Shown piece after piece: positions 26,383 through 48,768 of a stretch of DNA of 48,768 nt (positions are counted from its first letter, which is position 1; every line of letters starts with the position of its first letter). Below the pieces are notes generated by a model. It did no database searches, had not been told where the DNA came from, and saw only the letters and a list, made by a program, of their open reading frames with translations. Origin of the DNA: Planctomycetaceae bacterium (lineage in GTDB: Bacteria; Planctomycetota; Planctomycetia; Planctomycetales; Planctomycetaceae). Location of the stretch: NCBI GenBank assembly GCA_028291565.1, contig JAQGHT010000082.1, positions 1 to 48,768 of the forward strand, in the 5' to 3' direction. A program made the position numbers and the translations under genes.

Positions 26383-27681
26383 TCACTTCGACTGCGCGAT
26401 ACTGCATTGCGGGTCGAGATTGCGAATGTGGCCATTCTCCGTCGCCGCATTTGGATCGATTGCACAATCGATCAGGGACGATTTCCCCGAAGCCAGCGCT
26501 TCAGTGAGAGCCGTCGTGAGCCCCTGCGGATCGAAGGCTTGGTAGCCGTCACCGCCAAAGGCTTCGATAAACTTGTCGTACCGCGATTGATTCATGAGAA
26601 CGGGCGGCGCAGGGGCAACTCCTTCGCTGCGCTTGACATCGTTGCCGCGCTCGATTCCGCCGTTGTTGAAGACGACGGTGACGATCGGCAGGTGATAGCG
26701 GCAAATCGTCTCAATCTCCATGCCGCTGAAGCCAAAGGTGCTGTCCCCTTCGATGGCCACAACCGGCTTGCCACTGACGACCGCCGCGCCGATCGCGTAA
26801 CCCCTACCGATGCCCATCACTCCCCAAGTCCCGCTATCAAGGCGTTTGAGTGGCGTGCGCATGTCGATCACGTTGCGGGCGATGTCCAGCGTGTTTGCCC
26901 GCTCGTTGACGAGATAAACATCCGGCCTGTCGGCGAGCACGACTTTGATGGCGGCAAGAGCACTGTAGAAATTCATCGGATTGTGATTGGCGACGAGGTG
27001 GGCCGGCACGCGCTCGATGTCTGTTTGTTTACTCTGAACGAGTTCATTGACCCAGGCGGTGCGAGGCTGGATCTCGCCAGGGGCAGGAAGTTGCCGCGGT
27101 GCCGCGTCGATTACGCAGACCAGCGTTCGCGCAGCGGACTCGGTGTCGACGGTTGCACTGAGAACACTTGCCGGGAGGTCGAGGTACACGCCACCGGGAC
27201 GGCCCGAGACGGCGGCGCGGATTGCACGCGCCAGACCGATGCCGATGTCCTCAGCCCGATTGACCCGGTACGCCGCCTTCGCGTACGGTTTGCCAGCATT
27301 CATCTGGTCGAGTTCCTCATCGTCACCTTGCTGAAGGTCGACAATCGCACGATCTCTCGATCCGCTGATCTGGATCATGGGGAACGCGTTTGTGGTGGCG
27401 TTAGCCAGGGCTACCATGCCGTTGAGAAAGCCGGGCGCGGAGACAGTGAGACAGATACCCGGTTTCTGGGTCAGATAGCCGGCGATCGCCGCCGCGTTGC
27501 CAGCGGATGCCTCATTGTGGAAGCCGATGTAGCGAATCCCTTTGGCTTGAGCCAGCCGCGCCAGGTCTGTGACCGGAATGCCGGCCACACCGAACATTGT
27601 ATCGAGGCCGTTAAGCTTCAAGGAATCGACTAGCAAGTGAAACCCGTTCGTCAGTCTGGACGAATTAGTATTGATTTCCAT
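26383..27681 (-). CDS. Oxalyl-CoA decarboxylase-like ThDP enzyme lacking the central (ADP-binding) domain
   Basis: The PYR domain (GIPVTDLARLAQAKGIRYIGFHNEASAG, CLTVSAPGFLNG, GRPGGVYLDLP) is joined directly to the PP domain (GTWGVMGIG, IEGDSTFGFSGMEIETICRY..FNNGG). The protein is 432 aa against roughly 565 aa for the remembered E. coli and O. formigenes Oxc. Confidence 0.8.
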   Translation of the reverse strand: MEINTNSSRLTNGFHLLVDSLKLNGLDTMFGVAGIPVTDLARLAQAKGIRYIGFHNEASAGNAAAIAGYLTQKPGICLTVSAPGFLNGMVALANATTNAFPMIQISGSRDRAIVDLQQGDDEELDQMNAGKPYAKAAYRVNRAEDIGIGLARAIRAAVSGRPGGVYLDLPASVLSATVDTESAARTLVCVIDAAPRQLPAPGEIQPRTAWVNELVQSKQTDIERVPAHLVANHNPMNFYSALAAIKVVLADRPDVYLVNERANTLDIARNVIDMRTPLKRLDSGTWGVMGIGRGYAIGAAVVSGKPVVAIEGDSTFGFSGMEIETICRYHLPIVTVVFNNGGIERGNDVKRSEGVAPAPPVLMNQSRYDKFIEAFGGDGYQAFDPQGLTTALTEALASGKSSLIDCAIDPNAATENGHIRNLDPQCSIAQSK

Positions 27682-28279: not shown

Positions 28280-31200
28280 CTAGGGGGATGCGGCAGTCAT
28301 TGCTTGAGATCGCAGGGTGTCGATTGACAGACCATCGACCTGCTGGATGAGTTCGCTGGCGATTACGTCGAGTTGCTCCATCAAGGGTTGGCACGCTTCG
28401 TGACAGCCTCCAGCCGCGCTGTCTTCAAGGTCAGACGCAATCGCGCCAGCAACCGATGAGAATGCCGCAAGCATGCCACATAATTTATGAGCGGCCTCGC
28501 GCAACAGCGGCATGTTGCGGCTCCGCAAAGAGTCCTTGGCCGCCTGAAGATGACCTGGAAGTCGGTCTCGAAATACTGTGCAAATGTTACGGAGAATGGC
28601 GTCGTCGCCGCCGCAGGCCGCGAGTAATACTTGCACATCGAGCAGGCCGGATTTCTGTTCCGCGAATGGAGACGTCGATGCCACCGGAACCGCCGCGTTG
28701 GCATTCATGACCCGGTCGATGGCCGCCCACAAAGCGGCGGCTTGAATCGGCTTGGACAGGAAATCGTCCATACCGGCTGCGAGACACTTGTCACGATCTT
28801 CTTTTCGGGAGCGTGCTGTCAAGGCAATAACAGGTAGATGTTCATTAACCGCTCGTTCTCGCTCGCGAATTCGCTGAATGACCTGGAAGCCGTCCAGTTC
28901 CGGCATGTGGATATCAAGGAATAACAGGTCGAATCTCTCCTCTTGGGCCAGATGGAGCGCCTCACGACCGTTGAATGCAACACCGACGCGGTGGCCTCGC
29001 CGAGAGAGCAATTGTTCCAGAAGTTGCGCATTGAATTCGTTATCTTCGGCCACCAGAATGCGCAGTGACGTGCTGATCTGATCAGGGGCCTGCATCGGTG
29101 GCCGAAACGGCACAGGTCCGCCAACAGCCGGAGCATCGGCATGAGTTTGACTCATCACTTGGTAGATCGTTTCCAGCAACTCATCCTGCCGGACGGGCTT
29201 GAGGAGACGAGCATCGATCCCTAATTGGTGCGAGCGAGCTGCGTCATCATTCCGGTCTCCGGATGTTAATAGAACGATGCGCGTGGCGGAACGCGACGTC
29301 CGCTCTCGGATCCTGGCTGCGAGTGCCAGCCCGTCTGTGTCCGGCATGCGCGCGTCGAGAAGAATGAGTGCGAACTGCCGTTCAGTCGTGGCGGATTGCC
29401 AGAGAGCGTCCATTGCCGCCACCCCGTCACCAACGGCCGTCGGCTTCATCTTCCATCCGTGCAGCCATTCTTCCAGGATATACCGATTTGTCTCGTTATC
29501 ATCAACAATAAGTACGGGCAGGTCTTGAAGCAGGACAGGTGGTTGGGCAGAAATCGTTTCCGAGGATTGCGTCTGTCGTCTGCAGGAGGCCGTGAATGTG
29601 AAGGTACTCCCCCGACCGGGCTGACTGACCACGGAGATTTTTCCCCCCATCAGCGCGACCAGGCGCGAGGCGATCGTCAAGCCGAGACCAGTTCCGCCGT
29701 ATTTTCGCGTGGTGGAAGTGTCTTCTTGTTCAAAGGCCCGGAAGATCGCTTCGTGTTTATCGGGTGGGATCCCGATTCCCGTATCGGTCACGGAAAAGAG
29801 CAACCTGACCTCATCGTCCAGCGTCGGTTCGTCGGTACATTCAACCCGAACAACGACATCACCCTGTTCGGTAAACTTGAGGGCATTGCCGATCAGGTTG
29901 AGCAGGATCTGGCGCAACCGGCCGGAGTCCCCGACCAGTGCGTCGGGCACGCCCGGATGGACGTCGCTGATCAACTCCAGCCCCTTTCTGTGGGCTCGCA
30001 TGGCCAGGGTCCGCAGCGTTTCGCCCAGCACCGACCGCAACGAGAAGTCGGCCAGGTCCAGCTCCAGTTTGCCGGACTCGATCTTGGAGAAGTCGAGCAG
30101 GTCGTTAATGATGTTGAGCAGATTATCGGCGGCGGCTTTAACGGTTTTCAGGGATTGCCGCTGATCCTCTGCAAGCGAAGTGTCAAGGACCAGTTCGGTC
30201 ATGCCCAGGATGGCGTTCATGGGAGTGCGAATCTCGTGGCTGACGTTGGCGAGAAACTCATCCTTGGCTCGGTTGGCCGATTCGGCGGCCTCTTTGGCGA
30301 CGCGCAACTCCTCTGCGGTAGTCTTTCCGTCCGTGATATCCGTGCATGTGCCGAACCATTTAAAGATGTTGCCTGCACCATCTCGGATCGGTACCCCGCG
30401 CGTCTTGAACCAGCGGTACTCGCCGTCCGTGTGGCGGACGCGGTATTCTACGTCGTACGTATCTGGCCCTTCGACGGCGGCTGTCCATGCCTGCCGGGTG
30501 CGTTCGCGGTCCTCGGCGTGCAGCGTTTCCAGCCAGCGCCAACCGAGCAACTCGTTTTCGGCTACGCCTGTGTGGTGCGTCCACTGCGTGCTGAAGTAGT
30601 CACACGCGCCGTCCGGCGTCGCGGTCCAAACCAATTGCGGCAACGCCTCCGTCAGACTCCTCCAGCGATGTTCGCTCGCTCGGAGCGCTTCGTCGCTGCG
30701 CTTTCGCTCGGTAATGTCCCGCACCAAAGCCACCGTGAAACGTCGACCGCCCTCCCAGAACGACTGGCCCCTGACCTCCACGGGGAATACAGTCCCGTCT
30801 TTGCGGCGGTGCCGGGACTCGAATGCCATGATCTCACCGTCATCAAGCTGGCGACTGATCTCCTCGATATTGAATGGAGTGACGTCGGGGTCAAAGTCCG
30901 TCGGAACCATTCCGAGCAGCTCTTCACGCGTGTACCCCAGGCTTTCGCAGGCTTGACGGTTCACGTCCAGGACCATGTATCGTTCGTCCTGCAGGAAGAA
31001 CGCATCCGTCGCATGGTTCACAAATGTCTGAAACCGTTGCTCGCTTTCGCGAAGTGCCGTTTCAGCCCACTTTCGCTCGGTAATGTCTTCAGCCAGTCCG
31101 GCAAAACGGCGAATGTTTCCAATTTGATTGTCGTTTCCAACTTGCTTGTCAACTGGGAAAGCGCGACTACGTATCCAGCGAATCGAACCGTCCGGTCGGA

Positions 31201-31834
31201 CGATGCGGAATTCCAATTCTGAGAAGACACCGTGCCGATACTGCTCGATGCATTCGATTGCCCTGTCGCGATCATCAGAATAGACACTTTCGTTCAAGGA
31301 GCGAGGTTGCTCGTAAAGGCTCTGACACGTCCGACCCCAAACCGCTTCGTAGCCTGGGCTAACGTAAGTGATTCGATCTTCCTGTGTATCAAACAACCAG
31401 AAAATCTCATGGATATTCTCCGCCATTTGACGGAAGCGTTCCTCGGCTTCTTGTAAAGTCTTCTCGGCTCGCTGGCGCTCGTGGGTCAACAGGCGACGCT
31501 GGGTCCGATGCAGGGACTCGCTTAAGATGCTGAGCATTGCGCCGACCAATACGAACAAGCAAAATCCGACGGCGACGTGGGTGTACGACAGGGGAAGCGA
31601 GGACTGTGTCGTCAATAGAAAATAGCCGGCCGCAAGCGAACTGAGGACCGTTGCCAATAATCCGGAGCGAAGGCCTCCATAGTACGCGGCGAGGGCGACG
31701 GCCGGAAAAAATGTCATGTGTGGAAGCCGATCTTCCAGCACTGTCCAGAGAGGCCAACGGATCAGGAGCGAGACCGCCGGCCCCAGCACGGCGATACTAT
31801 AAGCAACCAGTGGGGTACGTCGAGTTTCGTTCAT
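28280..31834 (-). CDS. Hybrid sensor histidine kinase: membrane N-terminus, multiple PAS/PAC, HisKA, HATPase_c, two receiver domains, HPt
   Basis: H-box SHEIRTPMNAILGMTEL, G2 GGTGLGLTIASRLV, REC1 VLIVDDNETN..LILLDARMPDTDG, REC2 ILVAEDNEFN..LLFLDIHMPELDG, and HPt AAHKLCGMLAAFS. Four N-terminal TM helices. Confidence 0.9.
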   Translation of the reverse strand: MNETRRTPLVAYSIAVLGPAVSLLIRWPLWTVLEDRLPHMTFFPAVALAAYYGGLRSGLLATVLSSLAAGYFLLTTQSSLPLSYTHVAVGFCLFVLVGAMLSILSESLHRTQRRLLTHERQRAEKTLQEAEERFRQMAENIHEIFWLFDTQEDRITYVSPGYEAVWGRTCQSLYEQPRSLNESVYSDDRDRAIECIEQYRHGVFSELEFRIVRPDGSIRWIRSRAFPVDKQVGNDNQIGNIRRFAGLAEDITERKWAETALRESEQRFQTFVNHATDAFFLQDERYMVLDVNRQACESLGYTREELLGMVPTDFDPDVTPFNIEEISRQLDDGEIMAFESRHRRKDGTVFPVEVRGQSFWEGGRRFTVALVRDITERKRSDEALRASEHRWRSLTEALPQLVWTATPDGACDYFSTQWTHHTGVAENELLGWRWLETLHAEDRERTRQAWTAAVEGPDTYDVEYRVRHTDGEYRWFKTRGVPIRDGAGNIFKWFGTCTDITDGKTTAEELRVAKEAAESANRAKDEFLANVSHEIRTPMNAILGMTELVLDTSLAEDQRQSLKTVKAAADNLLNIINDLLDFSKIESGKLELDLADFSLRSVLGETLRTLAMRAHRKGLELISDVHPGVPDALVGDSGRLRQILLNLIGNALKFTEQGDVVVRVECTDEPTLDDEVRLLFSVTDTGIGIPPDKHEAIFRAFEQEDTSTTRKYGGTGLGLTIASRLVALMGGKISVVSQPGRGSTFTFTASCRRQTQSSETISAQPPVLLQDLPVLIVDDNETNRYILEEWLHGWKMKPTAVGDGVAAMDALWQSATTERQFALILLDARMPDTDGLALAARIRERTSRSATRIVLLTSGDRNDDAARSHQLGIDARLLKPVRQDELLETIYQVMSQTHADAPAVGGPVPFRPPMQAPDQISTSLRILVAEDNEFNAQLLEQLLSRRGHRVGVAFNGREALHLAQEERFDLLFLDIHMPELDGFQVIQRIRERERAVNEHLPVIALTARSRKEDRDKCLAAGMDDFLSKPIQAAALWAAIDRVMNANAAVPVASTSPFAEQKSGLLDVQVLLAACGGDDAILRNICTVFRDRLPGHLQAAKDSLRSRNMPLLREAAHKLCGMLAAFSSVAGAIASDLEDSAAGGCHEACQPLMEQLDVIASELIQQVDGLSIDTLRSQAMTAASP

Positions 31835-32080
31835 GCCAGCCTCGCCGGGAACTGGAAATGCTTATGACGGACTTCAAAACAGGTCGACAGACGTCGAATT
31901 CTCACGAATGCTCCTCCCTTAACCGGATTGGCTGAAAGATGCGAATCAAATGCCAATCGGCACAATATCAAGTTCCGTGACTCTCCGATCAAACTCTGAT
32001 TTGCTGGACAGATCGCGTGTTCTGAGCAACAATGACCACGCCCCGCTTCAGCCCTCAATGATATTGGTTGCGATCCCAAA

Positions 32081-33526
32081 ATGGCACACTTATTGCTAAT
32101 TGATGATGACCCGGAGTTGGTTGCCGAACAAGTACGATCGGCATTCCCAACTCCAGTCCACCGGTTTAACGTGGCACTCACTGGTGCGGAAGGATTGAAA
32201 AAAGTTGTCGCTGATCCACCTGCTGTGGTACTTCTCGACCTGCGGCTTCCGGATCAGTCGGGCTTGGATGTCTATCAACGGATTCGCGACCTAGATGCCC
32301 GGATCCCCGTCATTTTCATTACCACGGCCAAGGGCGCGGACGCGGCCATCGAAGCAATGAAGCTGGGCGCCTATGATTACATGTTTAAGCCGCTCAACTT
32401 GCACGAACTGCGGCGCGTCGTCGGTGAGGCACTCGACGTAGCCGATCGCATGCGCAAGCCGGCCGTCGTCGCCGAGTCCACTGTCGACACCGACGTAGAA
32501 GGCGCAATCATCGGGAGCTGCGCGGCCATGCGTGAGGTCTACAAGGCCATTGGCAGGGTCGCCGGCCAGGACGTCGCTGTGTTAATCACTGGTGAAACGG
32601 GCACTGGTAAAGAATTGATCGCCCGTGCCATCTACCAGCATAGTCTACGTGGTAAAGGGCTGTTTCTGGCTCTGAACTGCGCTGCCATTCCAGAAAACCT
32701 GCTGGAAAGTGAATTATTCGGACATGAAAAGGGCGCTTTCACCGGGGCCGACCGTCGTCGCATCGGCAAGTTTGAACAATGCAACGGAGGAACCATTTTT
32801 CTGGACGAAATCGGCGATATGCCACTCACCCTGCAGGCAAAAATGCTCCGCTTGCTGCAGGAACAAACTTTCGAGCGCGTCGGAGGCAATGAAACTGTTC
32901 GCACAGACGTGCGGTTGATCGCCGCCACTCATCATGACCTGAAGAATGACTCCGTAGCGGGGAAATTCCGGTCGGATTTGTATTATCGCTTGAGCGTTTT
33001 TACCATCCACCTGCCTCCATTGCGCGAGCGTGGCGACGACTTATCCATGTTGGTACAGCATTATTTGCGTCGCTTCAGTCGAGAACTGGGCCGCGAGGTC
33101 CAGGAAATTGCGCCTGAAGCGTTGGAGCGCTTACACAATTGCTCATGGCCCGGAAACATCCGCGAATTGCAGAGCATCTTGAAACAGGCACTCTTACAAG
33201 CTCGCGGCACTATACTACTCTCTGCCTTCCTGCCAAAGCTCCCGGGAGAGACCTGTGATCCGGCTAGCGAATCAACTTCCGTAGCGGACGATTCCAGCCT
33301 CGAAGCAATCCTCGCTCTTTGCCTTTCGGCCGAACAAGGCGACCTCTACGCAGAAGCGCACCGTCAATTGGATCGACATTTGCTGCCACGTGTTCTGGAT
33401 GAAACGGATGGAAATCAACTTCAGGCCGCTCTCCGGTTGGGAATTGGGAGGGAGACACTACGCCGCAGACTCCGCGAACTGGGACTCCACGTCTCTCGTC
33501 AGGTTTCCGCTGATGACGACAAGTGA
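32081..33526 (+). CDS. Sigma-54-dependent transcriptional activator, NtrC family (REC - AAA+ - Fis HTH)
   Basis: REC LLLIDDDPE..VVLLDLRLPDQSG, Walker A GETGTGKE, the sigma-54 contact loop GAFTGA (ESELFGHEKGAFTGA), and a C-terminal HTH GNQLQAALRLGIGRETLRRRLRELG. Confidence 0.9.
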   Translation: MAHLLLIDDDPELVAEQVRSAFPTPVHRFNVALTGAEGLKKVVADPPAVVLLDLRLPDQSGLDVYQRIRDLDARIPVIFITTAKGADAAIEAMKLGAYDYMFKPLNLHELRRVVGEALDVADRMRKPAVVAESTVDTDVEGAIIGSCAAMREVYKAIGRVAGQDVAVLITGETGTGKELIARAIYQHSLRGKGLFLALNCAAIPENLLESELFGHEKGAFTGADRRRIGKFEQCNGGTIFLDEIGDMPLTLQAKMLRLLQEQTFERVGGNETVRTDVRLIAATHHDLKNDSVAGKFRSDLYYRLSVFTIHLPPLRERGDDLSMLVQHYLRRFSRELGREVQEIAPEALERLHNCSWPGNIRELQSILKQALLQARGTILLSAFLPKLPGETCDPASESTSVADDSSLEAILALCLSAEQGDLYAEAHRQLDRHLLPRVLDETDGNQLQAALRLGIGRETLRRRLRELGLHVSRQVSADDDK

Positions 33527-33652
33527 TAATTCGCCGCTCCGGCTCGAATCAGGGCTCGAATTTTCCGCTGCGCCATGACTGTCGCCGCTCCGGTTACGCC
33601 TTCAACGGTTTTAAATGCCGTCAAATTGGGTTACGCAAATCCTAAGAGCAAG

Positions 33653-33679
33653 TTCCTGGGCGACTGCCTCAAATCTTGC
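33653..33679 (+). promoter_or_regulatory. Copy 1 of a 27-nt conserved motif (TTCCTrGGCGACTGCCTCAAATCyTGC)
   Basis: 25/27 identical to 42588-42614. It lies 127 nt after the activator stop codon and 70 nt before the mbfA-like ATG. Confidence 0.4.
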
Positions 33680-33748
33680 CACTCGATGATTGCCGCAGTT
33701 TATCCGCTACTCCGCCCTGCAACGTGGAATTTCGAGAAGTCCAAAATC

Positions 33749-34705
33749 ATGCGATCTTTTCAGAGCCTCAGCGAGCAGGAAATTCTGGCCTTGGCCATCT
33801 CCCTCGAAGAAGAAGATGCTCGCATATACGGCGACTTCGCCGAAGGGATTAAGACCGACTATCCTGCCACCGCGTTGATCCTCAACAATATGCGAGCCGA
33901 AGAGAACGGCCACCGGCACCGACTCATCGAGCTGCACCGCCAGAAGTTCGGCGAACACATTCCGCTGATTCGGAGGCACGACGTCCAGGGATTCGTCAAT
34001 CGCAAGCCGATTTGGCTCGTGCGTCCTCTCGGGCTGTCTGCTATTCGCAAAGAAACCGAATTGATGGAGCTGGAAACGAGGCGATTTTATGAGACAGCCG
34101 CCCGGAAGGCCACCGACGCCGGAATCCGACAGCTCCTCGGAGACTTGACCGAAGAGGAACGCAAGCACTCGTTGCTCGTTGAAGAATTGGACAGCGCGCA
34201 CCGTTACTCCGGGGCGGCCGAAAATGAGGCTGATACGGAGAAGCGATTGTTCATTCTCCAGGTGATCCAGCCTGGTTTGGCCGGGCTGATGGACGGATCT
34301 GTATCAACGCTTGCTCCCATTTTCGCCGCCGCATTCGCCACCCGTGACAGTTGGCAAACCTTTCTGGTGGGCCTTGCGGCCAGCCTGGGAGCCGGCATCA
34401 GCATGGGGTTCGCCGAGGCACTCTCCGACGATGGCAGCCTCACGGGTCGCGGCCGGCCGTGGACGCGTGGCGTCGTCTGTGGATTGATGACTACGTTGGG
34501 AGGGCTGGGACACACCTTGCCATACCTGATTCCACGGTACCAAACCGCCACGGCCGCTGCGGTCGGAGTGGTTCTGGTTGAGTTGGCCGTGATTTCCTGG
34601 GTCCGCCATCGATTCATGGACACGCCGCTGGCGTCGGCGGTCTTCCAAGTCATGATCGGCGGACTCCTCGTCTTTCTGACCGGCATTCTCATCGGCAGTT
34701 CCTGA
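33749..34705 (+). CDS. mbfA: Membrane-bound ferritin-like iron exporter (erythrin domain fused to a VIT1/CCC1 transporter), MbfA-like
   Basis: The N-terminal four-helix di-iron motifs are EEEDARIY, EENGHRHRL, ELETRRFY and EEERKHSL. The C-terminal VIT1 region is GLMDGSVSTLAPIFAAA...GISMGFAEALSDDG plus TM helices. ATG 33749 was chosen because the upstream part of ORF 33575.. has no domain. Confidence 0.75.
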   Translation: MRSFQSLSEQEILALAISLEEEDARIYGDFAEGIKTDYPATALILNNMRAEENGHRHRLIELHRQKFGEHIPLIRRHDVQGFVNRKPIWLVRPLGLSAIRKETELMELETRRFYETAARKATDAGIRQLLGDLTEEERKHSLLVEELDSAHRYSGAAENEADTEKRLFILQVIQPGLAGLMDGSVSTLAPIFAAAFATRDSWQTFLVGLAASLGAGISMGFAEALSDDGSLTGRGRPWTRGVVCGLMTTLGGLGHTLPYLIPRYQTATAAAVGVVLVELAVISWVRHRFMDTPLASAVFQVMIGGLLVFLTGILIGSS

Positions 34706-38309: not shown

Positions 38310-38314
38310 GACAA

Positions 38315-39841: not shown

Positions 39842-39904
39842 TATTATCGCACTGAATCGTAGTCTCTGCATACAGGGAAATACCAGGGGTGAGAGCAGAA
39901 AAAA
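39842..39904. repeat. Copy B of the conserved intergenic module (see 37455-37517)
   Basis: TATTATCGC-N22-CAGGGAAA-TA-CCAGGGG-N8-GAAAAAA, located immediately 3' of the MEDS kinase stop (39929). A third CAGGGGG follows at 39906-39912. Confidence 0.4.
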
Positions 39905-39928
39905 ACAGGGGGTCCGCGAAAAACCGTG

Positions 39929-42082
39929 TCACTCCTCGGCGTCTGCAGATTCCTGCCTGGCGTTGTTTATGGGGAAAGACGCACATATGTGGGTGTGACT
40001 TCCCGGTTCGGATTCAACGACCAGGCTACCACCTAGAATCTGGACACGCTCTGCCATCCCCAGCAGACCGAGACCTCCGCGTCTAGTGGACTGCCCCTGC
40101 GTGCGAATCACATCAAATCCCACGCCATCATCGCGAACGACCAACTTCAGAATGCTCTCGCTCTGACTCAATTCGATCCATACATTACTTGCTGCGGCGT
40201 GGCGCATTACGTTGGTCAGCGCTTCCTGCACCACACGGAAGCAAGCAATCGCCAATTTGGGAGCAAGTGGTTCCAGTGGCAGGTGGCCCACGATATGTAC
40301 AGCACAGCCCCCCCTCTGCTGGTGCTGCTCAGCGAGCCAGCGCAGCGAGGTTTCCAGCCCGAAGCTGTCGAGCATAGTTGGACGCAGTTCGAGCGCCAGG
40401 CTGCGCACCTGCTTCCCAGCTTCCCGCAGGAGCGAGGAGCATTCGTTCAAGTGGGGAACCGCGTCCGGCCCGGCTAGGCCCCGTGCCGCATGGAGGTGCA
40501 AAGTTATGGTCGCCAGAATCTGGCCGAACTCGTCATGTAATTCGCGGGCCAAGTGGCGACGCTCTTCCTCCTGGACTTCGAGCAGCCGGTGCGAAAGGGT
40601 TTGTAAGCGATCCGCAGATTCACGCAGGGCTTCCTCGGCCCGCTTGCGTTCGGTGATATCCCGGTGAGCGCAGAGATGAAGGCCAGGCAGAATGTTGGCG
40701 ACCGAGCGGAATTCAACCTCCCGGGTCGTGCCACTTTTACACAATACCGTGATCTCGCCGCTCAGCGATCCGTCAGAGAGTAAAAGCTCCAACAATTGAT
40801 GGATACGCTGGCGCGTCTCGACTGGAGTGACATCCCAAATCGTCAACTGGACGAGTTCGTCCCGACTGTAACCCAGTAGCTTGCAGGCCGCCGGATTTCC
40901 CTCCACGTACCGGCCGCTTTGATCAAAAAGAAATATTGGGTCAAGGGCATTTTCAAAGATGGCGTGGGAGCGCCGTCGGTTTTCCTCAAGCATCTCTTCT
41001 ACGCGCCTGAGTCCCGTGACGTCCTGAGCCGTTCCAACCAGGCGAATCGGCTCGCCTTGCTCGTTCAGAATGACTCCACCGCGGTCGTGCAATACACGAG
41101 TGCTGCCGTCTGCAAGGGTGATTCGGTAGTCACAACTGAAATTGCGGCGATCGCGAATTGCCTCCTCTACCGTTGCGCGAATCCGCTCGACATCGTCCGG
41201 CACGAGGAATTTCAGGAACTGCCGGTAGGAGAGGTCAACCTCGTCCGCTTTGGCGCCAAAAATGCGGTAGAGTTCGTCGGACCATGTGACCTCATTGGTA
41301 CGTAAATCCCGTTCCCAACTGCCGATGTGCGCGACTTGCTGTGCCTCGGCGAATCGACGTTCGCTTTGCTTGAGCTTTTCGAGGGCATGTTCCCGCTCCT
41401 GCTCGGCTGTGCTCGCCCGTTTCAACTGTGAAATCCACCAGTCTACTCGCCGCTTCTTGAATTCGGGGGTCGTTCCGGCGTGGTCTTGCATCAATAATAT
41501 TTCTGGACTTTCGTAATAGGGGTTGAGAAAAACCTGGTCATCTAGGATCACGAGAGGGTGGGTTCGAATGACGTCATGAATGCACGGCGAGTCAAAGCGA
41601 GATTTATTGTACTGGCATAAGACCACCGACTTGCTGCTTTTGAGCAAGTGATTAAAGAGCGCCTCGTATTCGATCAACCGATCGCAAATGGAATCCGCTT
41701 GTAATGCCCAAGTCATTTCGCCCACCAAGCGCAATCCGGAAAAACCGGCGGCGAGTGCCTCGACCTCCGCCTCATGGACAAAGTCCGTCATCACTTGGGG
41801 AACAAAGTTCCCAGTCCGGAGGTAAGTGTCCTGGCTGGTTTGTAAACGCAAGGCGCCACGAAGGAGTTCTTGATCCACATTCACACCAGCCGCTGAAAGG
41901 GTCTCAGCAACTTCTTTGATTGTATGTTCGTCCGCAATATAGAGACAGCGCGCTTTTTGATTGATCCCTTCTTTGATGAACTGTACCGCCGCGTCTAATT
42001 GCTCGTCCGCATTTTCGTAGATCGAGCAGATATGATCGCCGTATTTCAGTTTGGAGAGTTCTTGCTCCAGATTGGTTGACAT
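39929..42082 (-). CDS. MEDS-domain / PAS / PAS / HisKA_3 sensor histidine kinase (cytoplasmic)
   Basis: The N-terminus YGDHICSIYENADEQLDAAVQFIKEGINQKARCLYIADEH..MTWAL is the MEDS pattern. Two PAS domains follow, then DHp EEERRHLARELHDEFGQILATITLHLH and HATPase EALTNVMRHA, DDGVGFD, GLLGMAERV. Confidence 0.85.
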   Translation of the reverse strand: MSTNLEQELSKLKYGDHICSIYENADEQLDAAVQFIKEGINQKARCLYIADEHTIKEVAETLSAAGVNVDQELLRGALRLQTSQDTYLRTGNFVPQVMTDFVHEAEVEALAAGFSGLRLVGEMTWALQADSICDRLIEYEALFNHLLKSSKSVVLCQYNKSRFDSPCIHDVIRTHPLVILDDQVFLNPYYESPEILLMQDHAGTTPEFKKRRVDWWISQLKRASTAEQEREHALEKLKQSERRFAEAQQVAHIGSWERDLRTNEVTWSDELYRIFGAKADEVDLSYRQFLKFLVPDDVERIRATVEEAIRDRRNFSCDYRITLADGSTRVLHDRGGVILNEQGEPIRLVGTAQDVTGLRRVEEMLEENRRRSHAIFENALDPIFLFDQSGRYVEGNPAACKLLGYSRDELVQLTIWDVTPVETRQRIHQLLELLLSDGSLSGEITVLCKSGTTREVEFRSVANILPGLHLCAHRDITERKRAEEALRESADRLQTLSHRLLEVQEEERRHLARELHDEFGQILATITLHLHAARGLAGPDAVPHLNECSSLLREAGKQVRSLALELRPTMLDSFGLETSLRWLAEQHQQRGGCAVHIVGHLPLEPLAPKLAIACFRVVQEALTNVMRHAAASNVWIELSQSESILKLVVRDDGVGFDVIRTQGQSTRRGGLGLLGMAERVQILGGSLVVESEPGSHTHICASFPINNARQESADAEE

Positions 42083-42587
42083 GATCGTGCTTTCGGCAAT
42101 TCGGAGACACGCCGTCAGTGCTGGCAGGAGCTCATTCGAGGGAGTTCACCAGGGCGACAAGGCAATAGCAAACCTGCCTGAACAACGGCATCGGATGCAA
42201 ATGTTGTGCCGATCGCCCCCGTAGCAGAATTTGAACTCTCCCATTCGGTTCCGTTGCGAACGAACCGATCGATCGCGTGAGGGGAATAGTCTGCCTCTCC
42301 GCCTCAAAATCTGTATGAACATTATTCAGCTCCGTATTCACGAATCATATCGGGATGTGTTTCCTGGATTCGACTTTCGCCAGTATGGAAATTGAGGGAT
42401 TTAACTGCAACCGCTGGCTAGGGCGGCAAGAGTTACGATGATCGAACAACCACACAGTACGGTAACATGCGTCGGTCCGGCACACCGAAGTGAATCGGCA
42501 GTTAAATCATAGGTGCGCGTGCCGATTCCAATCGTGCCATCACCCTCTTGCTTCTCAACTCGTAGGACCTGTGCACCACCAGGCCGA

Positions 42588-42614
42588 TTCCTAGGCGACT
42601 GCCTCAAATCCTGC
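42588..42614 (+). promoter_or_regulatory. Copy 2 of the 27-nt conserved motif, about 160 nt upstream of the sigma-54 promoter (UAS-like position)
   Basis: 25/27 identical to 33653-33679 and contains the short palindrome AGGC-GACT-GCCT. A degenerate relative, CTGCCTCtccGCCTCAAAATCTG, lies at 42290-42313. Confidence 0.4.
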
Positions 42615-42773
42615 TAATTGGCCTTCCGCGATGTCCAGTCCGCGGATTGATGTTTTTGAAATTCTTTCCCGTCTCTTGAGGTTTTCTTTTCGTGACGGAA
42701 CCGCTGAGTCCGAAACAGATTGCGACAGCCGGTTCGTCCGTCGATTCCGCCGCAAATTCTTTCCTCTTTTTTT

Positions 42774-42789
42774 TGGCACATGTCTTGCC
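42774..42789 (+). promoter_or_regulatory. Sigma-54 (-24/-12) promoter
   Basis: TGGCAC-ATGTC-TTGCC is a perfect match to TGGCAC-N5-TTGCW, is preceded by a T-rich tract, and has its -12 GC 73 nt upstream of ATG 42861. Confidence 0.7.
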
Positions 42790-42860
42790 TTGACGCTAAT
42801 AGAGAGAGTCCCCGAGTAGGCGTTCCCGAATCGTTCACGAATTCGTCGAGGAGAAATTCC

Positions 42861-44039
42861 ATGTCCGACAGTAACCGCCGAGACTTCCTCGCTGGGGCGG
42901 CTCTGTTCGCAGCCGCCACTACAGCGATGTTGGCAAACCGAACGACTGAAGCCGGTGACCCGAGCTTTATGAACAATGTTCCTGATCCTGCGCTTGCCGG
43001 CAAAGAGTTACCCACTTTCAAGTTCGCCCTGGAAAAGTCGGAAGGCAAGGTGATTGGTAAGAGCTTTGGCAAAGAGGCCACCGTCGAGCAATTACCGATT
43101 TCAAAGGGCATCGCGGGGGTTTCGATGAAGCTGGAACCAGGTGCCATGCGCGAATTGCATTGGCATGCGACTGCAGCCGAATGGGCATTCGTGGTCGAAG
43201 GGCGAGTCCGAACGACCGTCATCGACCCTGACGGGAACGCAGAAACGAATGATTTCGGACCAGGGGATGTGTGGTTGTTTCCACGCGGCCACGGCCACAT
43301 GCTCGAATGCCTGAGACACGAGCCGGCGCATTTCATTCTGATCTTCGATAACGGCTACTTCTCGGAATTCGGCACATTCAGCATCAGCGATTGGATCGGC
43401 CACACGCCGAAGCCGCTGTTGGCGAAGAACTTTGGCATTCCCGAATCGGCCTTTGATGGATTTCCCAAGGACGAAGTGTACTTCGCTCGCGGCGCCGTAC
43501 CACCTGAGAAGCAAAGTACTCCGCTCCAGGGCCGGAAGTTGCCGGCGCAGACACACAAGTTCGAACTCCTTGAACAACCGCCCCATAAGGTCTTCAAAGG
43601 AGGCCGTGAGTGGCGGGTCGATTCCAGGCGGTTCCCGATTTCGAAGACGATCACAGGCGTGATTTTGGACCTTGAGCCAGGCGGGCTGCGCGAACTGCAT
43701 TGGCATCCGAATGCCGACGAGTGGCAATACGTGATCGAGGGGAACGTCAGTGTGACAATGTTTGGCTCACACGGCCGGTACCGAACTGAAACGATGGAAA
43801 AGGGAGACGTCGGTTACATCCCGCAAGGCTATGGGCACTCGATCGAGAATATTGGGAACAAACAGTGCCGGATTCTCATCGGATTCAACTCAGGTGTGTA
43901 CGAGGCGATCGATCTGTCGCAATGGTTCGCCGGAAATCCGGTCGATGTGCTGGCCACCAACTTCAGCAAGCCTGCGTCGTTGTTTGAGAGGTTTCCCAAG
44001 CAAGATGTGTTCATTTCACCCCAAGGAGAACCGCAATAG
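42861..44039 (+). CDS. Tat-exported bicupin oxalate decarboxylase (OxdC/OxdD-like)
   Basis: Twin-arginine leader MSDSNRRDFLAGAALFAAA. Cupin 1 is ELHWHATAAEWAFVVEG...FPRGHGH and cupin 2 is ELHWHPNADEWQYVIEG...IPQGYGHSIEN. The lid FSEFGTF retains the Glu of the OxdC SENS lid. GAGGAG RBS. Confidence 0.85.
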   Translation: MSDSNRRDFLAGAALFAAATTAMLANRTTEAGDPSFMNNVPDPALAGKELPTFKFALEKSEGKVIGKSFGKEATVEQLPISKGIAGVSMKLEPGAMRELHWHATAAEWAFVVEGRVRTTVIDPDGNAETNDFGPGDVWLFPRGHGHMLECLRHEPAHFILIFDNGYFSEFGTFSISDWIGHTPKPLLAKNFGIPESAFDGFPKDEVYFARGAVPPEKQSTPLQGRKLPAQTHKFELLEQPPHKVFKGGREWRVDSRRFPISKTITGVILDLEPGGLRELHWHPNADEWQYVIEGNVSVTMFGSHGRYRTETMEKGDVGYIPQGYGHSIENIGNKQCRILIGFNSGVYEAIDLSQWFAGNPVDVLATNFSKPASLFERFPKQDVFISPQGEPQ

Positions 44040-44144
44040 CAAGTCTTCTCGCGATGACTTTGTGCGTCTGGTGCGGTCGGGCGGGGCAATTCGCCCCAAA
44101 TTCCCGATTGATCCGATCTCTGCTCGTAGTTTACGGAGCAAAAC

Positions 44145-45323
44145 ATGCAGCCTGAAAATCACGAATCCAGTTTCATTAGACGACTTTTGCTGATCGTCTT
44201 CGTTAGTCTAAACGTACTGGATTTGCTCTTCACATCTCACTTTGCGCCGAATGTGAGTCGAGCCGAAGAATCGCCACGTTCGAAGTCGGTCGCGGAAACT
44301 TCTAATGAACGCTCCGCGTCAAAAGTCGATGATTTGCTCAAAGAAGCGCAACGTCACTTCAAGCCACTCCCTAAGGATCTGGCGACTCAGGAATTCCCAA
44401 TTAATCCGGACCTAGTAACTCTGGGCCGCAAGTTATTCTTCGACCCGCGAATTTCCGCGGATGGAACAGTCAGTTGTTCGCGGTGTCATCAAGCTGCTCT
44501 GTACGGCACCGATGGGCTCGCAAAGTCACACGGAGCGCACGACAAGGTGCTTCCCCGCAATGCCCCAACCGTATTCAATGCCAGTTTGCATTTCAAGCAA
44601 CACTGGCGGGGCGAATTGCAGTCTGTCGAGGAGCAGGCGAAACGGTCGCTGGTGGGACCAGGATTTGCCAATCCAGACTACGTCACGGCAATGACCAAAT
44701 TGAAGGCGATCCCCGGATACTCCGAGATGTTCCTGAAGTGCTTCCCAGGCTCGGCCAATTCAGTAACCGAAGACAACTGGGGCAAGGCGATCGGTGCGTA
44801 TGAGCGAACGCTGGTCACGCCATCTCGATTCGACGAGTTCCTCAATGGAACTACCAATGCCCTCACAAGTGCGGAACAACAGGGACTACGTACTTTTATT
44901 GGCACGGGTTGTGCCCTGTGCCACAACGGAGCTGGAATCGGGGGTGATAAATTCAGGAAGTTCGGCGTGCTGGAAGACTACTGGCCTGCGACTCACAGTA
45001 AGGACGTCGACAAAGGCCGATTCGATCTGACGAAAAATCTGGACGATCTCTACCTGTTTAAAGTCCCGGGCCTCCGCAATGTCGAGACGACGCCACCGTA
45101 TTTCCATGACGGCTCGGTTACCAGGTTACCGGATGACGTCCGAATAATGGCTCGGGTGCAACTCGACGTGACCCTGTCCGAGCGCGACACGACAGCGATC
45201 GTGACATTCCTGAAGAGCCTGACAGGTAAGCGTCCGCAGGACTTCACCGACGCACCGATTCTCCCGGCCGCCGGATTCGACTCATCGGTCACTAGTACTG
45301 AGGACCAACATGCTACTCGCTGA
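44145..45323 (+). CDS. Di-haem cytochrome c peroxidase (CCP/MauG family)
   Basis: N-terminal signal/anchor, haem motifs CSRCH and CALCH, and the conserved PPYFHDGS region. Confidence 0.85.
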   Translation: MQPENHESSFIRRLLLIVFVSLNVLDLLFTSHFAPNVSRAEESPRSKSVAETSNERSASKVDDLLKEAQRHFKPLPKDLATQEFPINPDLVTLGRKLFFDPRISADGTVSCSRCHQAALYGTDGLAKSHGAHDKVLPRNAPTVFNASLHFKQHWRGELQSVEEQAKRSLVGPGFANPDYVTAMTKLKAIPGYSEMFLKCFPGSANSVTEDNWGKAIGAYERTLVTPSRFDEFLNGTTNALTSAEQQGLRTFIGTGCALCHNGAGIGGDKFRKFGVLEDYWPATHSKDVDKGRFDLTKNLDDLYLFKVPGLRNVETTPPYFHDGSVTRLPDDVRIMARVQLDVTLSERDTTAIVTFLKSLTGKRPQDFTDAPILPAAGFDSSVTSTEDQHATR

Positions 45324-46221
45324 GAAAAACAATTATCCCATCGATCGGGCACTGGCAAACGTGCAAATGTCGCGTATTTCAGGAAGTAGTTTGGTCAATG
45401 ATGCGGATGAGTTGGCTGTCGAAGAACCGCTGGAAATCCGGCTCGGCTGCGACGTGGAAGGCAAACGCATTCACCGCGCCGTCTCAATTACGATGCGTAC
45501 GCCCGGTCACGATCTGGAATTGGCGGTCGGATTTCTGTTTACCGAGGGAATTATCTTCGCACGGGATGAAGTGGCGGGGCTAGTCGCCTGCGGGGCCGGC
45601 AATGTTGCCCGAGTCAATTTGCGGCGCGGCAGCGAGGTGGACTTGTCGCGACTGGAGCGGCACTTCTACGCGACTTCAAGCTGCGGCGTGTGTGGCAAAG
45701 CGTCGCTGGATGCAGTGCGGGTTTGCCCCCGGAGTCGCCCTGTGGACGGCCTTCCCGTCGTCGACGCGGCTGTCATCCACCGGCTGCCGGCGACTTTACG
45801 GGCGGCCCAAGCCGTGTTCGACCGCACCGGCGGCCTACACGCATCGGCACTCTTCAATTCCCAGGGTGAAATGGTGTGCCTTCGCGAAGATGTCGGCCGG
45901 CACAACGCTTTGGATAAGTTGATCGGTGCTCAATTCCTGGCTGAGCGTACGCCCCTCACGCAAAGTGTGTTGCTGGTCAGCGGCCGGGTCAGCTTCGAAT
46001 TGGTTCAGAAGGCGGCGGTGGCGGGTATCCCCATTCTGGCGGCAGTCGGCGCTCCGTCGAGTCTGGCGGTCAGCCTGGCCCGCGAGCACGGCCTGACGGT
46101 CCTCGGCTTTGTGCGCGAAGATCGCTTCAACATCTACACTGGTAGCGAACGCATTCGTCATGCCGGAGCAATGAATCCGCTGCTGGATTATGAATCGCTG
46201 GAGCCGCCGCCACTCATCTAA
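45310..46221 (+). CDS. fdhD: FdhD formate-dehydrogenase accessory sulfurtransferase
   Basis: TSSCGVCGKASLD, GGLHASALF and EDVGRHNALDKLIG. The ORF overlaps the peroxidase stop. An alternative start is ATG 45367. Confidence 0.85.
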   Translation: MLLAEKNNYPIDRALANVQMSRISGSSLVNDADELAVEEPLEIRLGCDVEGKRIHRAVSITMRTPGHDLELAVGFLFTEGIIFARDEVAGLVACGAGNVARVNLRRGSEVDLSRLERHFYATSSCGVCGKASLDAVRVCPRSRPVDGLPVVDAAVIHRLPATLRAAQAVFDRTGGLHASALFNSQGEMVCLREDVGRHNALDKLIGAQFLAERTPLTQSVLLVSGRVSFELVQKAAVAGIPILAAVGAPSSLAVSLAREHGLTVLGFVREDRFNIYTGSERIRHAGAMNPLLDYESLEPPPLI

Positions 46222-46236
46222 TCGGGAGATTTTGTA

Positions 46237-48708
46237 ATGGATGAATTGAATCAAACGCCAGCGGAAAGTAGCACTTCCAGTGGACAATCCTCGGCCGATT
46301 ATCAGCCACAGCACGAAGTACCTCACACCTCAACGGCGCAAAACGAGGCGAAGGCGCCAGAGGCTCAATTGGTTGGCGGGCACGGTGATGTGAATCCGCA
46401 GATGTCTGAGCAATTGATGGGACTCCGTCAGCGAGAGCCGGAACGCAAAGCGACCGGAATCAAGGCCGTAATCTCCAGTTTTCACTATGCCTGGGGTGAG
46501 GCAGGGTTGATGCGCGGCACGTTGCCGCTCTTGCAGCTCAATCAGAAGGACGGCTTCGACTGTCCGGGTTGTGCCTGGCCTGACTCGGATGGCAAGCGTT
46601 CGAGATTCGACTTCTGCGAGAACGGGGCCAAGGCCGTTGCACATGAGTCGGATCGCCGCCGCATGACGGCGGAATTCTTCGCCTCCCACTCGGTAGCCGA
46701 ACTGTCGCAACAATCAGACTATTGGCTGGAACAACAGGGTCGATTAACCGAGCCAATGGTCCTCCGAGCGGGAGCGACGCACTACCAACCCATTTCCTGG
46801 GACGACGCATTCACCTTGATCGCAAGCGAGTTGAACGATTTGGCTTCGCCTGATGAGGCGATATTCTATACGTCCGGAAAGGCGCCGAATGAAGTCGCTT
46901 TTGCCTACCAACTTTTCGCGCGGCAGTTCGGCACGAACAACCTGCCCGATTGTTCCAATATGTGCCATGAAGCCAGCGGCACAGCGCTGAATCGCGTGTT
47001 GGGTTTCGGCAAGGGAACCGTCAAGCTGGACGACTTCGCCAAGTCACAACTCATTTTTGTCGTCGGCCACAATCCTGGGACAAATCACCCGCGAATGTTG
47101 ACTGAGCTCCAGGCCGCCAAACGGAATGGCGCCAAAATCATCGCCGTCAATCCTCTACCAGAGACTGGCCTGATCGCATTCATGAACCCACAAGAGCCTT
47201 TGGGATTGCTCGGCGCCGCCACGCCGATCGCTGACTTGTTTTTGCAAGTGCGGATCAATGGCGACGTGCCACTATTCAAGGGGATTCTCAAGGCGCTCAT
47301 CGAAGCCGAGGATCGTCAATCAGGTTCGGCCGTGGCGTGGGACTTCGTACGAGACCATACTGCGGGCGTGGAGACGCTGCTCAATGACGTTCGCTCCGCC
47401 TCTTGGGACGATATTGTACGGGTTTCGGGAATCGAGCGATCCCAGATTGAAACTGCCGCTGAATGGGCTCGGGCGACCGATCGCATCATTGTCAGTTGGT
47501 GCTTGGGGGTCACTCAGCATCACAATGGCCCAGGCAACATTCAGGAAATGCTCAACCTCTTGTTGCTGCGCGGAGCAATGGCGAAGCCCGGGGCTGGTGC
47601 GAGCTGCGTCCGTGGGCATTCGAACGTGCAGGGCGATCGCACCATGGGAGTGTGGGAACGTCCGAAGCCAGAGTTCCTGGATGCACTGTCCGAAGCGTTC
47701 CACTTCCAACCGCCGCGCGAGCACGGCTTCGACTCACAGAAGTCGGTCAAGGCGATGCACGACGGCCGCGGAAAGGTATTTGTCTCACTGGGCGGCAATT
47801 TTCTGCTCGCCCTTTCGGACACGGCCTATACCGCGGAGGCCCTCTCTCGCACGAACCTGACCGTGCGGATTGGCACAAAGCTCAATCGCTCCGACCTCGT
47901 CACCGGTCGGCAAGGACTGATTCTGCCCTGTCTCGGACGCACCGAGGCTGATATGTCTGCACCGACCAGCTCACGGCCCGCGACCCAACAATTTGTGAGT
48001 TGTGAGAACTCAATGGGAGTGGTCCAGTGGTCGCGGGGCACGTTCACCCCTGCTTCGCTACAGCTCATGGGCGAGACCGCTATCGTCTGCCGCATGGCTC
48101 ACGCCGTGCTCGGTAGTCGGACCACTGTCGATTGGCCCGCCTGGGCCGATGACTATGACCTGATTCGCGACGGGATCGCGAAGGTCATCCCAGGCTTCAA
48201 GGACTACAACGACCGGGTCCGGCAACTTGGAGGGTTCTATTTGCCGAATCCGCCGCGCGAAAATATCTATCAAACTGACACAGGCAAAGCGAACTTCTCC
48301 GTCAATCCCATCCCCGAGCATCATTTGGAGCCGGGCCAATTTGTCATGACGACTGTTCGCAGCCACGACCAATTCAACACCACAATCTACGGGCTGCACG
48401 ACCGCTATCGTGGACTGCACTACGAACGACGGATCGTGATGCTGAATCGTGAGGACATGGCCGAACTGGGGATTCCGCCTCGCGAATTGGTCGATGTGAC
48501 GAGCCACTGGAAAGGACAGACACGGACGGCCAACAACTTTCTCGCCGTTGAGTATCCAATCCCGCGACGTTGCGCAGCGATGTACTACCCCGAGGCCAAT
48601 GTGCTGATCCCAATTGAGAGCACGGAGCCCTTAAGCAACTGCCCCACCTTTAAACACACGATCATCAGCTTGCGACCGGCCAGAGGAAATCAGAACTCTT
48701 CCACTTAG
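46237..48708 (+). CDS. Molybdopterin oxidoreductase alpha subunit, YdeP / FdhF-like (Cys-type) family
   Basis: N-terminal Fe-S motif FDCPGCAWPD...FCENG, Mo-ligand region LPDCSNMCHEASG, and MGD-binding segments (FVVGHNPGTNHPR, SWCLGVTQHHNG). About 820 aa with no signal peptide. Confidence 0.85.
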   Translation: MDELNQTPAESSTSSGQSSADYQPQHEVPHTSTAQNEAKAPEAQLVGGHGDVNPQMSEQLMGLRQREPERKATGIKAVISSFHYAWGEAGLMRGTLPLLQLNQKDGFDCPGCAWPDSDGKRSRFDFCENGAKAVAHESDRRRMTAEFFASHSVAELSQQSDYWLEQQGRLTEPMVLRAGATHYQPISWDDAFTLIASELNDLASPDEAIFYTSGKAPNEVAFAYQLFARQFGTNNLPDCSNMCHEASGTALNRVLGFGKGTVKLDDFAKSQLIFVVGHNPGTNHPRMLTELQAAKRNGAKIIAVNPLPETGLIAFMNPQEPLGLLGAATPIADLFLQVRINGDVPLFKGILKALIEAEDRQSGSAVAWDFVRDHTAGVETLLNDVRSASWDDIVRVSGIERSQIETAAEWARATDRIIVSWCLGVTQHHNGPGNIQEMLNLLLLRGAMAKPGAGASCVRGHSNVQGDRTMGVWERPKPEFLDALSEAFHFQPPREHGFDSQKSVKAMHDGRGKVFVSLGGNFLLALSDTAYTAEALSRTNLTVRIGTKLNRSDLVTGRQGLILPCLGRTEADMSAPTSSRPATQQFVSCENSMGVVQWSRGTFTPASLQLMGETAIVCRMAHAVLGSRTTVDWPAWADDYDLIRDGIAKVIPGFKDYNDRVRQLGGFYLPNPPRENIYQTDTGKANFSVNPIPEHHLEPGQFVMTTVRSHDQFNTTIYGLHDRYRGLHYERRIVMLNREDMAELGIPPRELVDVTSHWKGQTRTANNFLAVEYPIPRRCAAMYYPEANVLIPIESTEPLSNCPTFKHTIISLRPARGNQNSST

Positions 48709-48734
48709 AGGCAAACAAACAACCTGACTACTCT

Positions 48735-48764
48735 CCCCTCGCCCCGGTAATCCGGGGAGAGGGG
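48735..48764 (+). terminator. GC-rich hairpin after the molybdoenzyme gene (terminator candidate; window ends before any T-tract)
   Basis: CCCCTC-G-CCCCGG-TAAT-CCGGGG-A-GAGGGG, located 27 nt after the stop at 48708. Confidence 0.4.
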
Positions 48765-48768
48765 TCGG

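Follow-up and report, generated by a model that had tools for sequence, protein, structure and literature searches.

Toward the end of the window, the 48,768-nucleotide (nt) stretch of contig JAQGHT010000082.1 from a Planctomycetaceae bacterium (assembly GCA_028291565.1) that was analyzed here, four genes follow one another on the forward strand. They code for a manganese bicupin of the oxalate decarboxylase family, a di-heme cytochrome c peroxidase, the sulfurtransferase FdhD, and a molybdoenzyme of the FdhF/YdeP family. A sigma-54-type box precedes the first gene and a hairpin follows the last.

42774..42788, + strand: predicted sigma-54 promoter, -24 element TGGCAC and -12 element TTGC, 10/10 consensus positions, predicted transcript start near 42800
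42861..44039, + strand: manganese bicupin of the oxalate decarboxylase family, MncA-like, predicted to be exported by twin-arginine translocation (Tat) (TIGR03404, 345.9 bits against a cutoff of 254.2)
44145..45323, + strand: bacterial di-heme cytochrome c peroxidase with an N-terminal hydrophobic export segment (PF03150)
45310..46221, + strand: FdhD sulfurtransferase (NF001943, 295.9 bits against a cutoff of 269)
46237..48708, + strand: Cys-type FdhF/YdeP-family molybdoenzyme (TIGR01701, 873.6 bits against a cutoff of 582)
48731..48768, + strand: GC-rich hairpin downstream of the YdeP-type gene, truncated at the window edge (-27.7 kcal/mol, z-score -3.4)

Among solved structures, the best relative of the bicupin is Sll1358/MncA (2vqa, 1.3e-95), followed by OxdC (1j58, 1.8e-80). 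Its leader, MSDSNRRDFLAGAALFAAATTAMLA, has a twin-arginine motif, NRRDFL (RRDFL at residue 6), and the Tat leader was judged from this motif alone. Both His3Glu metal sites are present (HWHATAAE with GHGH and HWHPNADE with GYGH; HWH...E at residues 100 and 280, GHGH and GYGH at 143 and 323) and line up with their HWH...E and GH counterparts in MncA and OxdC. The lid, FSEFGTF at residue 167, keeps the glutamate and aligns with FSENSTF in OxdC and FSEGATF in MncA. In OxdC, the lid residue Glu162 favors decarboxylase over oxidase activity. All motifs that the original prediction had named for this protein (twin-arginine leader, both manganese sites, and lid glutamate) are therefore present, in a protein of the MncA/OxdC type. 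Gene neighborhoods were examined at about 170 loci, labeled L001 and so on. The closest locus, L001, belongs to a Planctomycetaceae metagenome-assembled genome with a 90% identical bicupin, and bicupins of 80%–90% identity occur across many planctomycetes from soils and peat bogs. The contig index contained no exact match to the window bicupin.

The bicupin might instead be an oxalate oxidase producing H2O2 and two CO2, with the peroxidase as the main consumer and the formate dehydrogenase unrelated. A peroxidase, catalase, or Dps gene does often adjoin the bicupin, and overall sequence similarity cannot separate oxidase from decarboxylase bicupins. We nevertheless consider an oxidase improbable: the lid glutamate needed for decarboxylation is kept (SEFGT here, SEGAT in MncA, SENST in OxdC), MncA is reported as a decarboxylase (PMC11742986), and an oxidase would make no formate, leaving the repeated FdhD and formate dehydrogenase neighbors described below unexplained. 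The protein is most likely an exported oxalate decarboxylase.

The three remaining gene calls and their motifs had also been made correctly in the original prediction. The peroxidase has heme motifs CSRCH at residue 111 and CALCH at residue 256. Its closest solved chains are the cytochrome c551 peroxidases 4aao and 4aal (~3e-77, versus 1e-15 for MauG), and its scores on the MauG and MbnH models are far below their cutoffs. FdhD carries SCGVCG at residue 124, which holds the Cys pair of the active loop, and GRHNALDK at residue 196, and is 80%–84% identical to the FdhD proteins of L161, L162, and L164. The YdeP-type enzyme has CPGC at residue 109 and CSNMCHEASG at residue 239; its Cys243-His244 aligns with Sec140-His141 of Escherichia coli FdhH, and its VRGHSNVQG aligns with VRGQNNVQG of FdhH, conserved Arg included. 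It has no close relative among solved structures, and no partner subunit for it is encoded in the operon. The enzyme has no export signal and is therefore taken to be cytoplasmic. Judged by sequence, each of the four parts fits squarely into a known family (MncA/OxdC, bacterial cytochrome c peroxidase, FdhD, and Fdh4A/YdeP).

The four genes are separated by 105 nt (bicupin to peroxidase), a 14-nt overlap (peroxidase to fdhD), and 15 nt (fdhD to ydeP), all on the same strand. When scanned, the intergenic gaps showed no terminator-like site, and the + strand of the scanned region showed no sigma-70-like promoter. The hairpin at 48731–48768 is the probable end of the operon. One transcript most likely covers all four genes, with cotranscription predicted to extend across the 105-nt gap. 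We considered a division into two transcription units, with the sigma-54 promoter serving the bicupin only and peroxidase-fdhD-ydeP expressed from an unrecognized promoter in or after the gap. The length and structure of the gap would suit such a division, as would the bicupin gene standing alone in most relatives and the FdhD-YdeP pair occurring on its own at L163, L164, and L169. A 9/10 sigma-54-like site, TGGCACGGGTTGTGC (44900–44914, +), lies inside the peroxidase gene and is the sole internal-promoter candidate ahead of fdhD, but it encodes the second heme motif, GTGCALCH, and is constrained by that coding; it is most likely a by-product of the coding sequence. The scan results, the 14-nt overlap of peroxidase and fdhD, and L161, where FdhD starts 30 nt past the bicupin stop, also speak for a single transcript, and we regard two units as unlikely, though deserving real weight.

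The box upstream of the bicupin gene reads TGGCAC-ATGTC-TTGC, with its GG and GC dinucleotides exactly 10 nt apart, and lies in a 778-nt intergenic region oriented toward the bicupin gene. Counted from the final base of the box, the bicupin ATG at 42861 comes 73 nt later, with a GGAGAA ribosome-binding site ahead of it; both the position and the spacing had been quoted correctly. Exact matches to the consensus number 2 in the window against 0.22 expected, and matches with at most one mismatch number 11 against 4.06 expected, a count that 0 of 100 shuffles reached. At seven other loci (L001, L002, L012, L100, L161, L162, and L171), GGCAY-N5-TTGC recurs 61–154 nt upstream of the bicupin ATG, in flanking sequence that has otherwise diverged. 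It was found within 300 nt upstream of the bicupin gene at 4 of 6 loci with orthologs of the kinase and activator described below, versus 2 of 140 loci without them (Fisher p = 1.2e-5). Three loci fetched after this test (L161, L162, and L171) have the exact 10/10 box 75–109 nt upstream of the ATG, and two more that lack the regulators (L170 and L172) have no box upstream of the bicupin.

Because the box is kept in relatives with kinase and activator orthologs and almost never in those without, the sigma-54 promoter at 42774–42788 is very probably real, and the comparison across genomes supports its original assignment. A chance match without promoter function is very improbable, given the similar distance of the box from the bicupin start at seven other loci despite diverged flanks, its tracking of the kinase/activator pair, and a calculated expectation for GGCAY-N5-TTGC of ~0.0015 per 200 nt. 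Exact matches do arise without function, however, as the plainly coding one at 32082 illustrates, and weaker boxes across bicupin loci fall on the wrong strand nearly as often as on the right one (11 versus 13, 146 loci). Sigma-54 control as a general trait of bicupin genes was rejected on these strand counts. A riboswitch or leader RNA is also unlikely, with no Rfam match at the gathering threshold in the window and an unstructured predicted 5' leader. The window's other exact match, at 32082–32096 (+), coincides with codons 1–5 (MAHLL) of the activator gene and is probably a coding coincidence. TGGCAC-N5-TTGC is also found at activator codons 1–5 in L001 (6111–6125) and is missing there in L002 and L012.

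The candidate regulators and cis elements are as follows.

28280..31834, - strand: hybrid sensor kinase (DUF4118, three PAS, HisKA, HATPase, two REC, and Hpt domains), divergent from the activator gene
31941..31955, - strand: second sigma-54-type box, TGGCATTTGATTCGC, 107 nt upstream of the kinase gene
32081..33526, + strand: NtrC-type sigma-54 activator (REC-AAA+-HTH by Pfam domains), candidate activator of the bicupin promoter
42584..42607, no strand assigned: block CCGATTCCTAGGCGACTGCCTCAA, conserved with L001 by alignment, ~170–190 nt upstream of the -24 element, candidate activator-binding region
42632–42638: TGTCCAG motif, candidate element upstream of the bicupin promoter
42738..42753, no strand assigned: CCGTCGATTCCGCCGC, candidate cis element just upstream of the -24 element

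The activator, with GAFTGA at residue 218 and Walker A at 171, had been put forward as a guess and emerges as the best candidate. Its orthologs (63%–79% identical) adjoin the bicupin gene at L001, L002, L012, L082, L100, and L161, and kinase orthologs (49%–62% identical) are paired with the activator and/or the bicupin at L001, L002, L012, L082, L086, L161, and L162. In several relatives the kinase/activator pair directly abuts the bicupin gene. At L171, an activator and an adjacent kinase of the same domain types share the contig of the bicupin, with a 7-kb insert lying between. The activator would most likely open the bicupin promoter after phosphorylation by the kinase at 28280–31834; this dependence on sigma-54 and on the activator is what we infer from the co-occurrence of box and regulators.

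Upstream of the kinase gene, TGGCAY-N2-GATTCGC is kept in the window and at L001 (5882–5896, -), L002 (5889–5903, -, where it reads CCATTCGC), L012 (1507–1521, +), L161 (4391–4405, +), and L162 (151–165, +). In five of these six loci a TGTCCAG motif lies 45–70 nt further upstream. The conserved box suggests that the kinase gene may itself be under sigma-54 control, which would give a positive feedback loop. Ahead of the bicupin promoter, two copies of the 42584–42607 block are visible in the upstream sequence of L001, and sequences nearly identical to the 42738–42753 element stand upstream of the boxes of L171 (CCGTCGATTCGCCGC) and L162 (CGATTCGCC). CGATTC(G)CC, TGTCCAG, and the 24-nt block shared with L001 are putative motifs for a shared activator site.

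Gene neighborhoods in relatives tie the bicupin repeatedly to formate dehydrogenases. At L161 and L162 the bicupin is followed by FdhD and a YdeP-type enzyme (82%–83% identical). The L162 bicupin is a paralog with 36% identity that scores 531 bits on the oxalate decarboxylase model and keeps the Tat leader and the lid glutamate. At L003 (Schlesneria), the bicupin is followed by FdhD and a TIGR01591 formate dehydrogenase with NuoG-like iron-sulfur domains. L120 has a bicupin, DsrE, an open reading frame (ORF) of unknown type, FdhD, and a selenocysteine formate dehydrogenase, whose gene (4474–7788) is split by one in-frame TGA (...NQARI-TGA-HSASV; ARI-U-HS). This TGA falls where selenocysteine is usually encoded, which makes an intact selenoprotein gene probable. 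The bicupin is followed by FdhD at L089 and adjoins a YdeP-type gene at L007 and L010. L006 and L014 also have molybdoenzymes beside the bicupin; these reached no formate dehydrogenase cutoff (next-best models: assimilatory nitrate reductase and the dimethyl sulfoxide reductase family) and were not counted.

A second oxalate route appears at L165, where the YdeP ortholog is 83% identical over the called gene and 80% over 815 amino acids. The row at 5190–12190 begins with a YfdE-type coenzyme A (CoA):oxalate CoA-transferase (629 bits), an intact oxalyl-CoA decarboxylase (979 bits), and a PAS protein, and continues with a Pta-like protein, an ORF of 84 amino acids, the YdeP ortholog, and two aldo-keto reductases. 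Aldo-keto reductase genes recur near YdeP-type genes at L161, at L167, and in the window (24417–25409). Bicupins have thus recruited formate dehydrogenases of three classes, and YdeP-type enzymes have joined two unrelated routes of oxalate decarboxylation. Formate from oxalate is the simplest common factor. The link from oxalate through formate to formate dehydrogenase that had been proposed from the window is backed by repeated, independent gene neighborhoods.

Peroxide- and iron-related genes are the other recurring neighbors. A peroxidase gene follows the bicupin at L001, L012, L081, and L100, Dps genes lie near or next to it at L002, L012, and L100, and a catalase with cytochrome b is found at the bicupin locus of L161; a gene for the iron exporter MbfA is in the window and near the module in L161. 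The regulon could accordingly be mainly a peroxide, iron, or metal stress response, with the bicupin as an exported manganese protein or oxidant handler and the tie to formate a secondary acquisition. The peroxidases of L001, L012, and L100 and the Dps, catalase, cytochrome b, and MbfA genes are the partners that recur with the same regulators, and FdhD and YdeP are absent at L001, L002, L012, and L100. This explanation has some standing, yet we hold it unlikely. Three unrelated formate dehydrogenase classes, each with FdhD, follow the bicupin in different lineages, a paralogous bicupin of the oxalate decarboxylase family fills the same slot in L162, and the L165 YdeP ortholog sits with the CoA-dependent oxalate route. 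A stress response is also compatible with the pathway, in that peroxide defense may just accompany an O2-dependent radical enzyme.

Weighing these lines together, we assign a probability of about 0.62 to a sigma-54/NtrC-driven four-gene operon that would turn oxalate to formate to CO2 with protection from peroxide. The substrates and the inducing signal are predictions. The kinase would sense oxalate, low pH, or peroxide and phosphorylate the activator, which would then open two sigma-54 promoters, one for the bicupin operon and one for the kinase gene. Outside the cytoplasm, the exported bicupin would convert oxalate and a proton to CO2 and formate, and the peroxidase would remove H2O2 made by or accompanying the O2-dependent radical reaction. 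Formic acid entering the cell would be oxidized to CO2 by the cytoplasmic YdeP-type molybdoenzyme after maturation by FdhD. The net effect would be the removal of an organic acid and a gain of reducing power.

Several observations weigh against this operon and pathway. All four genes occur together only in this window among the loci examined; the module as originally proposed has no full counterpart elsewhere, and what recurs is its pairs and triples. The bicupin-peroxidase gap (44040–44144) can form several hairpins (-37.9 kcal/mol, z-score -2.4, no U-tract) and could accommodate a second promoter, an attenuator, or an element for processing or stability. The activator gene is ~9 kb from the bicupin promoter, beyond a 9.2-kb block (33575–42082) coding for MbfA, a PAS hybrid kinase, a LuxR-type response regulator, a REC-HisKA_3 kinase, and a MEDS kinase. 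Activator and presumed target abut in L001 and L002, and the L171 insert, at the same place, is unrelated to the window block. No statistically supported activator-binding site was found among 8-mers with one mismatch in 11 promoter regions, a search dominated by background. rpoN is absent from the window, although the GAFTGA-bearing activator encoded there implies sigma-54 in the genome. The decarboxylase is predicted to be exported and the formate dehydrogenase to be cytoplasmic, and the operon codes for no carrier of formate or oxalate. With 675.6 bits, the molybdoenzyme does not reach the cutoff of 1473 of the E. coli YdeP equivalog model (NF007406); its sequence makes it a YdeP family member and, by the NCBI criterion, not the E. 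coli ortholog. We know of no YdeP family member with a biochemically proven substrate. Dps, catalase, and MbfA as recurring partners would fit a peroxide/iron stress response equally well. The peroxidase had originally been explained as removing the H2O2 side product of the bicupin, a rationale that the recurring peroxide-related neighbors favor and that these three partners also open to a broader reading.

A wider proposal, which we rate as doubtful, has the kinase/activator pair controlling a dedicated defense, in acidic habitats rich in oxalate, against acid stress and iron-oxalate (Fenton-type) stress. Five functions would be induced together by one signal: extracytoplasmic oxalate removal, H2O2 removal by peroxidase or catalase, iron sequestration or export (Dps, MbfA), formate oxidation by the YdeP-type enzyme, and possibly electron flow from formate to the peroxidase. 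If this were true, the physiological role of the YdeP family would be settled, enterobacterial acid resistance included.

The four-gene operon resembles several known systems in part. MncA (Sll1358, Synechocystis PCC 6803) and OxdC (Bacillus subtilis) are, like the window protein, manganese bicupins with two His3Glu sites and a lid glutamate. MncA is described as a Tat-exported, Mn(II)-dependent oxalate decarboxylase, a Tat substrate as predicted for the window bicupin, and is loaded with manganese in the cytoplasm before export (PMC11742986). Unlike in the window, sigma-54 control or linkage to a peroxidase or formate dehydrogenase is not described for MncA. OxdC has no Tat leader and is acid-induced through the sigma factor YvrI, not sigma-54.

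YdeP is tied to acid resistance in enterobacteria (PMC3720670, PMC10308882). In the EvgA acid-resistance genes of E. coli, ydeP and yfdXWUVE, a YdeP-family enzyme is co-regulated with formate-releasing oxalate decarboxylation, as predicted for the window. The set includes the oxalyl-CoA decarboxylase YfdU and the transferases YfdW and YfdE, and the same enzyme set are immediate neighbors in L165. The E. coli genes are scattered, serve a CoA-dependent cytoplasmic route, and are under EvgA/YdeO control, whereas the window has one cluster with a bicupin predicted to be exported and a sigma-54-type promoter. Oxidation of oxalate-derived formate by YdeP has already been proposed for E. coli (PMC3720670). 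Fdh4A of Methylobacterium extorquens, from the same FdhF/YdeP family, supports formate oxidation, and the YdeP-type PP_0256 of Pseudomonas putida, with its fdhD neighbor PP_0257, is formate-induced (PMC3720670, PMC10308882). The adjacent locus tags PP_0256 and PP_0257 pair a YdeP-type enzyme with FdhD as in the window. Both Fdh4A and PP_0256/PP_0257 are tied to methylotrophy or one-carbon exposure, not oxalate, and come without the bicupin, the peroxidase, and the sigma-54 promoter.

The FhlA/sigma-54 formate regulon of E. coli (fdhF and hyc) has a dedicated activator driving an FdhF-lineage molybdenum formate dehydrogenase. FhlA binds formate directly through GAF domains and is not a phosphorylated response regulator, and its regulon is anaerobic and holds no oxalate decarboxylase or peroxidase. 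Regulon and window share a sigma-54 promoter with an activator, both of them predicted in the window, where the activator is of the response-regulator type. The cytochrome c551 peroxidases 4aal and 3hq6, which we take to be Geobacter MacA and CcpA, and E. coli Ccp/YhjA have the fold and heme motifs of the window peroxidase and reduce periplasmic H2O2. None of these di-heme enzymes is known to share an operon with genes for oxalate decarboxylase or formate dehydrogenase, as is predicted for the window peroxidase.

Our search of the literature on oxalate decarboxylases with sigma-54, Planctomycetes, or formate dehydrogenase clusters found no such operon described, and both oxalate and cupins go unmentioned in a sigma-54 regulon survey of 2025 that covers Planctomycetia (PMC12316311). 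We have found no description of a sigma-54/NtrC-type circuit over an oxalate decarboxylase, or of an exported bicupin coupled to a peroxidase and a YdeP-type formate dehydrogenase. The original prediction had likewise known of no described operon of this composition under sigma-54 control, but the idea linking YdeP to formate from oxalate had been published before (PMC3720670). With this locus, the sigma-54 regulons of Planctomycetes, which have been little studied, gain a defined sensor-activator-promoter circuit, and the circuit may help explain the strong conservation of the bicupin in soil and peat-bog bacteria. It also offers a testable assignment, the oxidation of oxalate-derived formate by YdeP.

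Two further genes of the window may be related to the operon.

33575..34705, + strand: MbfA iron exporter, directly downstream of the activator gene (NF045676, 505 bits)
26383..27681, - strand: oxalyl-CoA decarboxylase (oxc) homolog of 432 amino acids, adjoining the kinase gene (NF006721, 650 bits)

MbfA is a possible member of the same response. The oxc homolog has a clean in-frame loss of a middle domain of ~135 amino acids and aligns to residues 5–202 and 343–559 of E. coli Oxc (2q27). On either side of the gap its identity to the intact enzyme of L165 is 70%–76%, and within the protein collection it is a singleton. Gene decay, a shortened variant, or a collapse in the assembly could account for it. 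Two 9/10 sigma-54-like boxes, CGGCACGCCCTTTGC (27906–27920, -) and GGGCACATCTCTTGC (28124–28138, -), are oriented toward oxc within the 600-nt kinase-oxc intergenic region; relatives have no oxc at this position.

Within the 9.2-kb block, the LuxR-type response regulator ORF (37656–38462, -) overlaps the REC-HisKA_3 kinase ORF (38315–39406, -) by ~150 nt, and its GTG start is probably called too far upstream. A further sigma-54-like sequence, CGGCACAACATTTGC (42197–42211, -), stands 115 nt ahead of the divergently transcribed MEDS-PAS-HisKA_3 kinase gene (39929–42082), and the 778-nt intergenic region may hold two divergent sigma-54 promoters.

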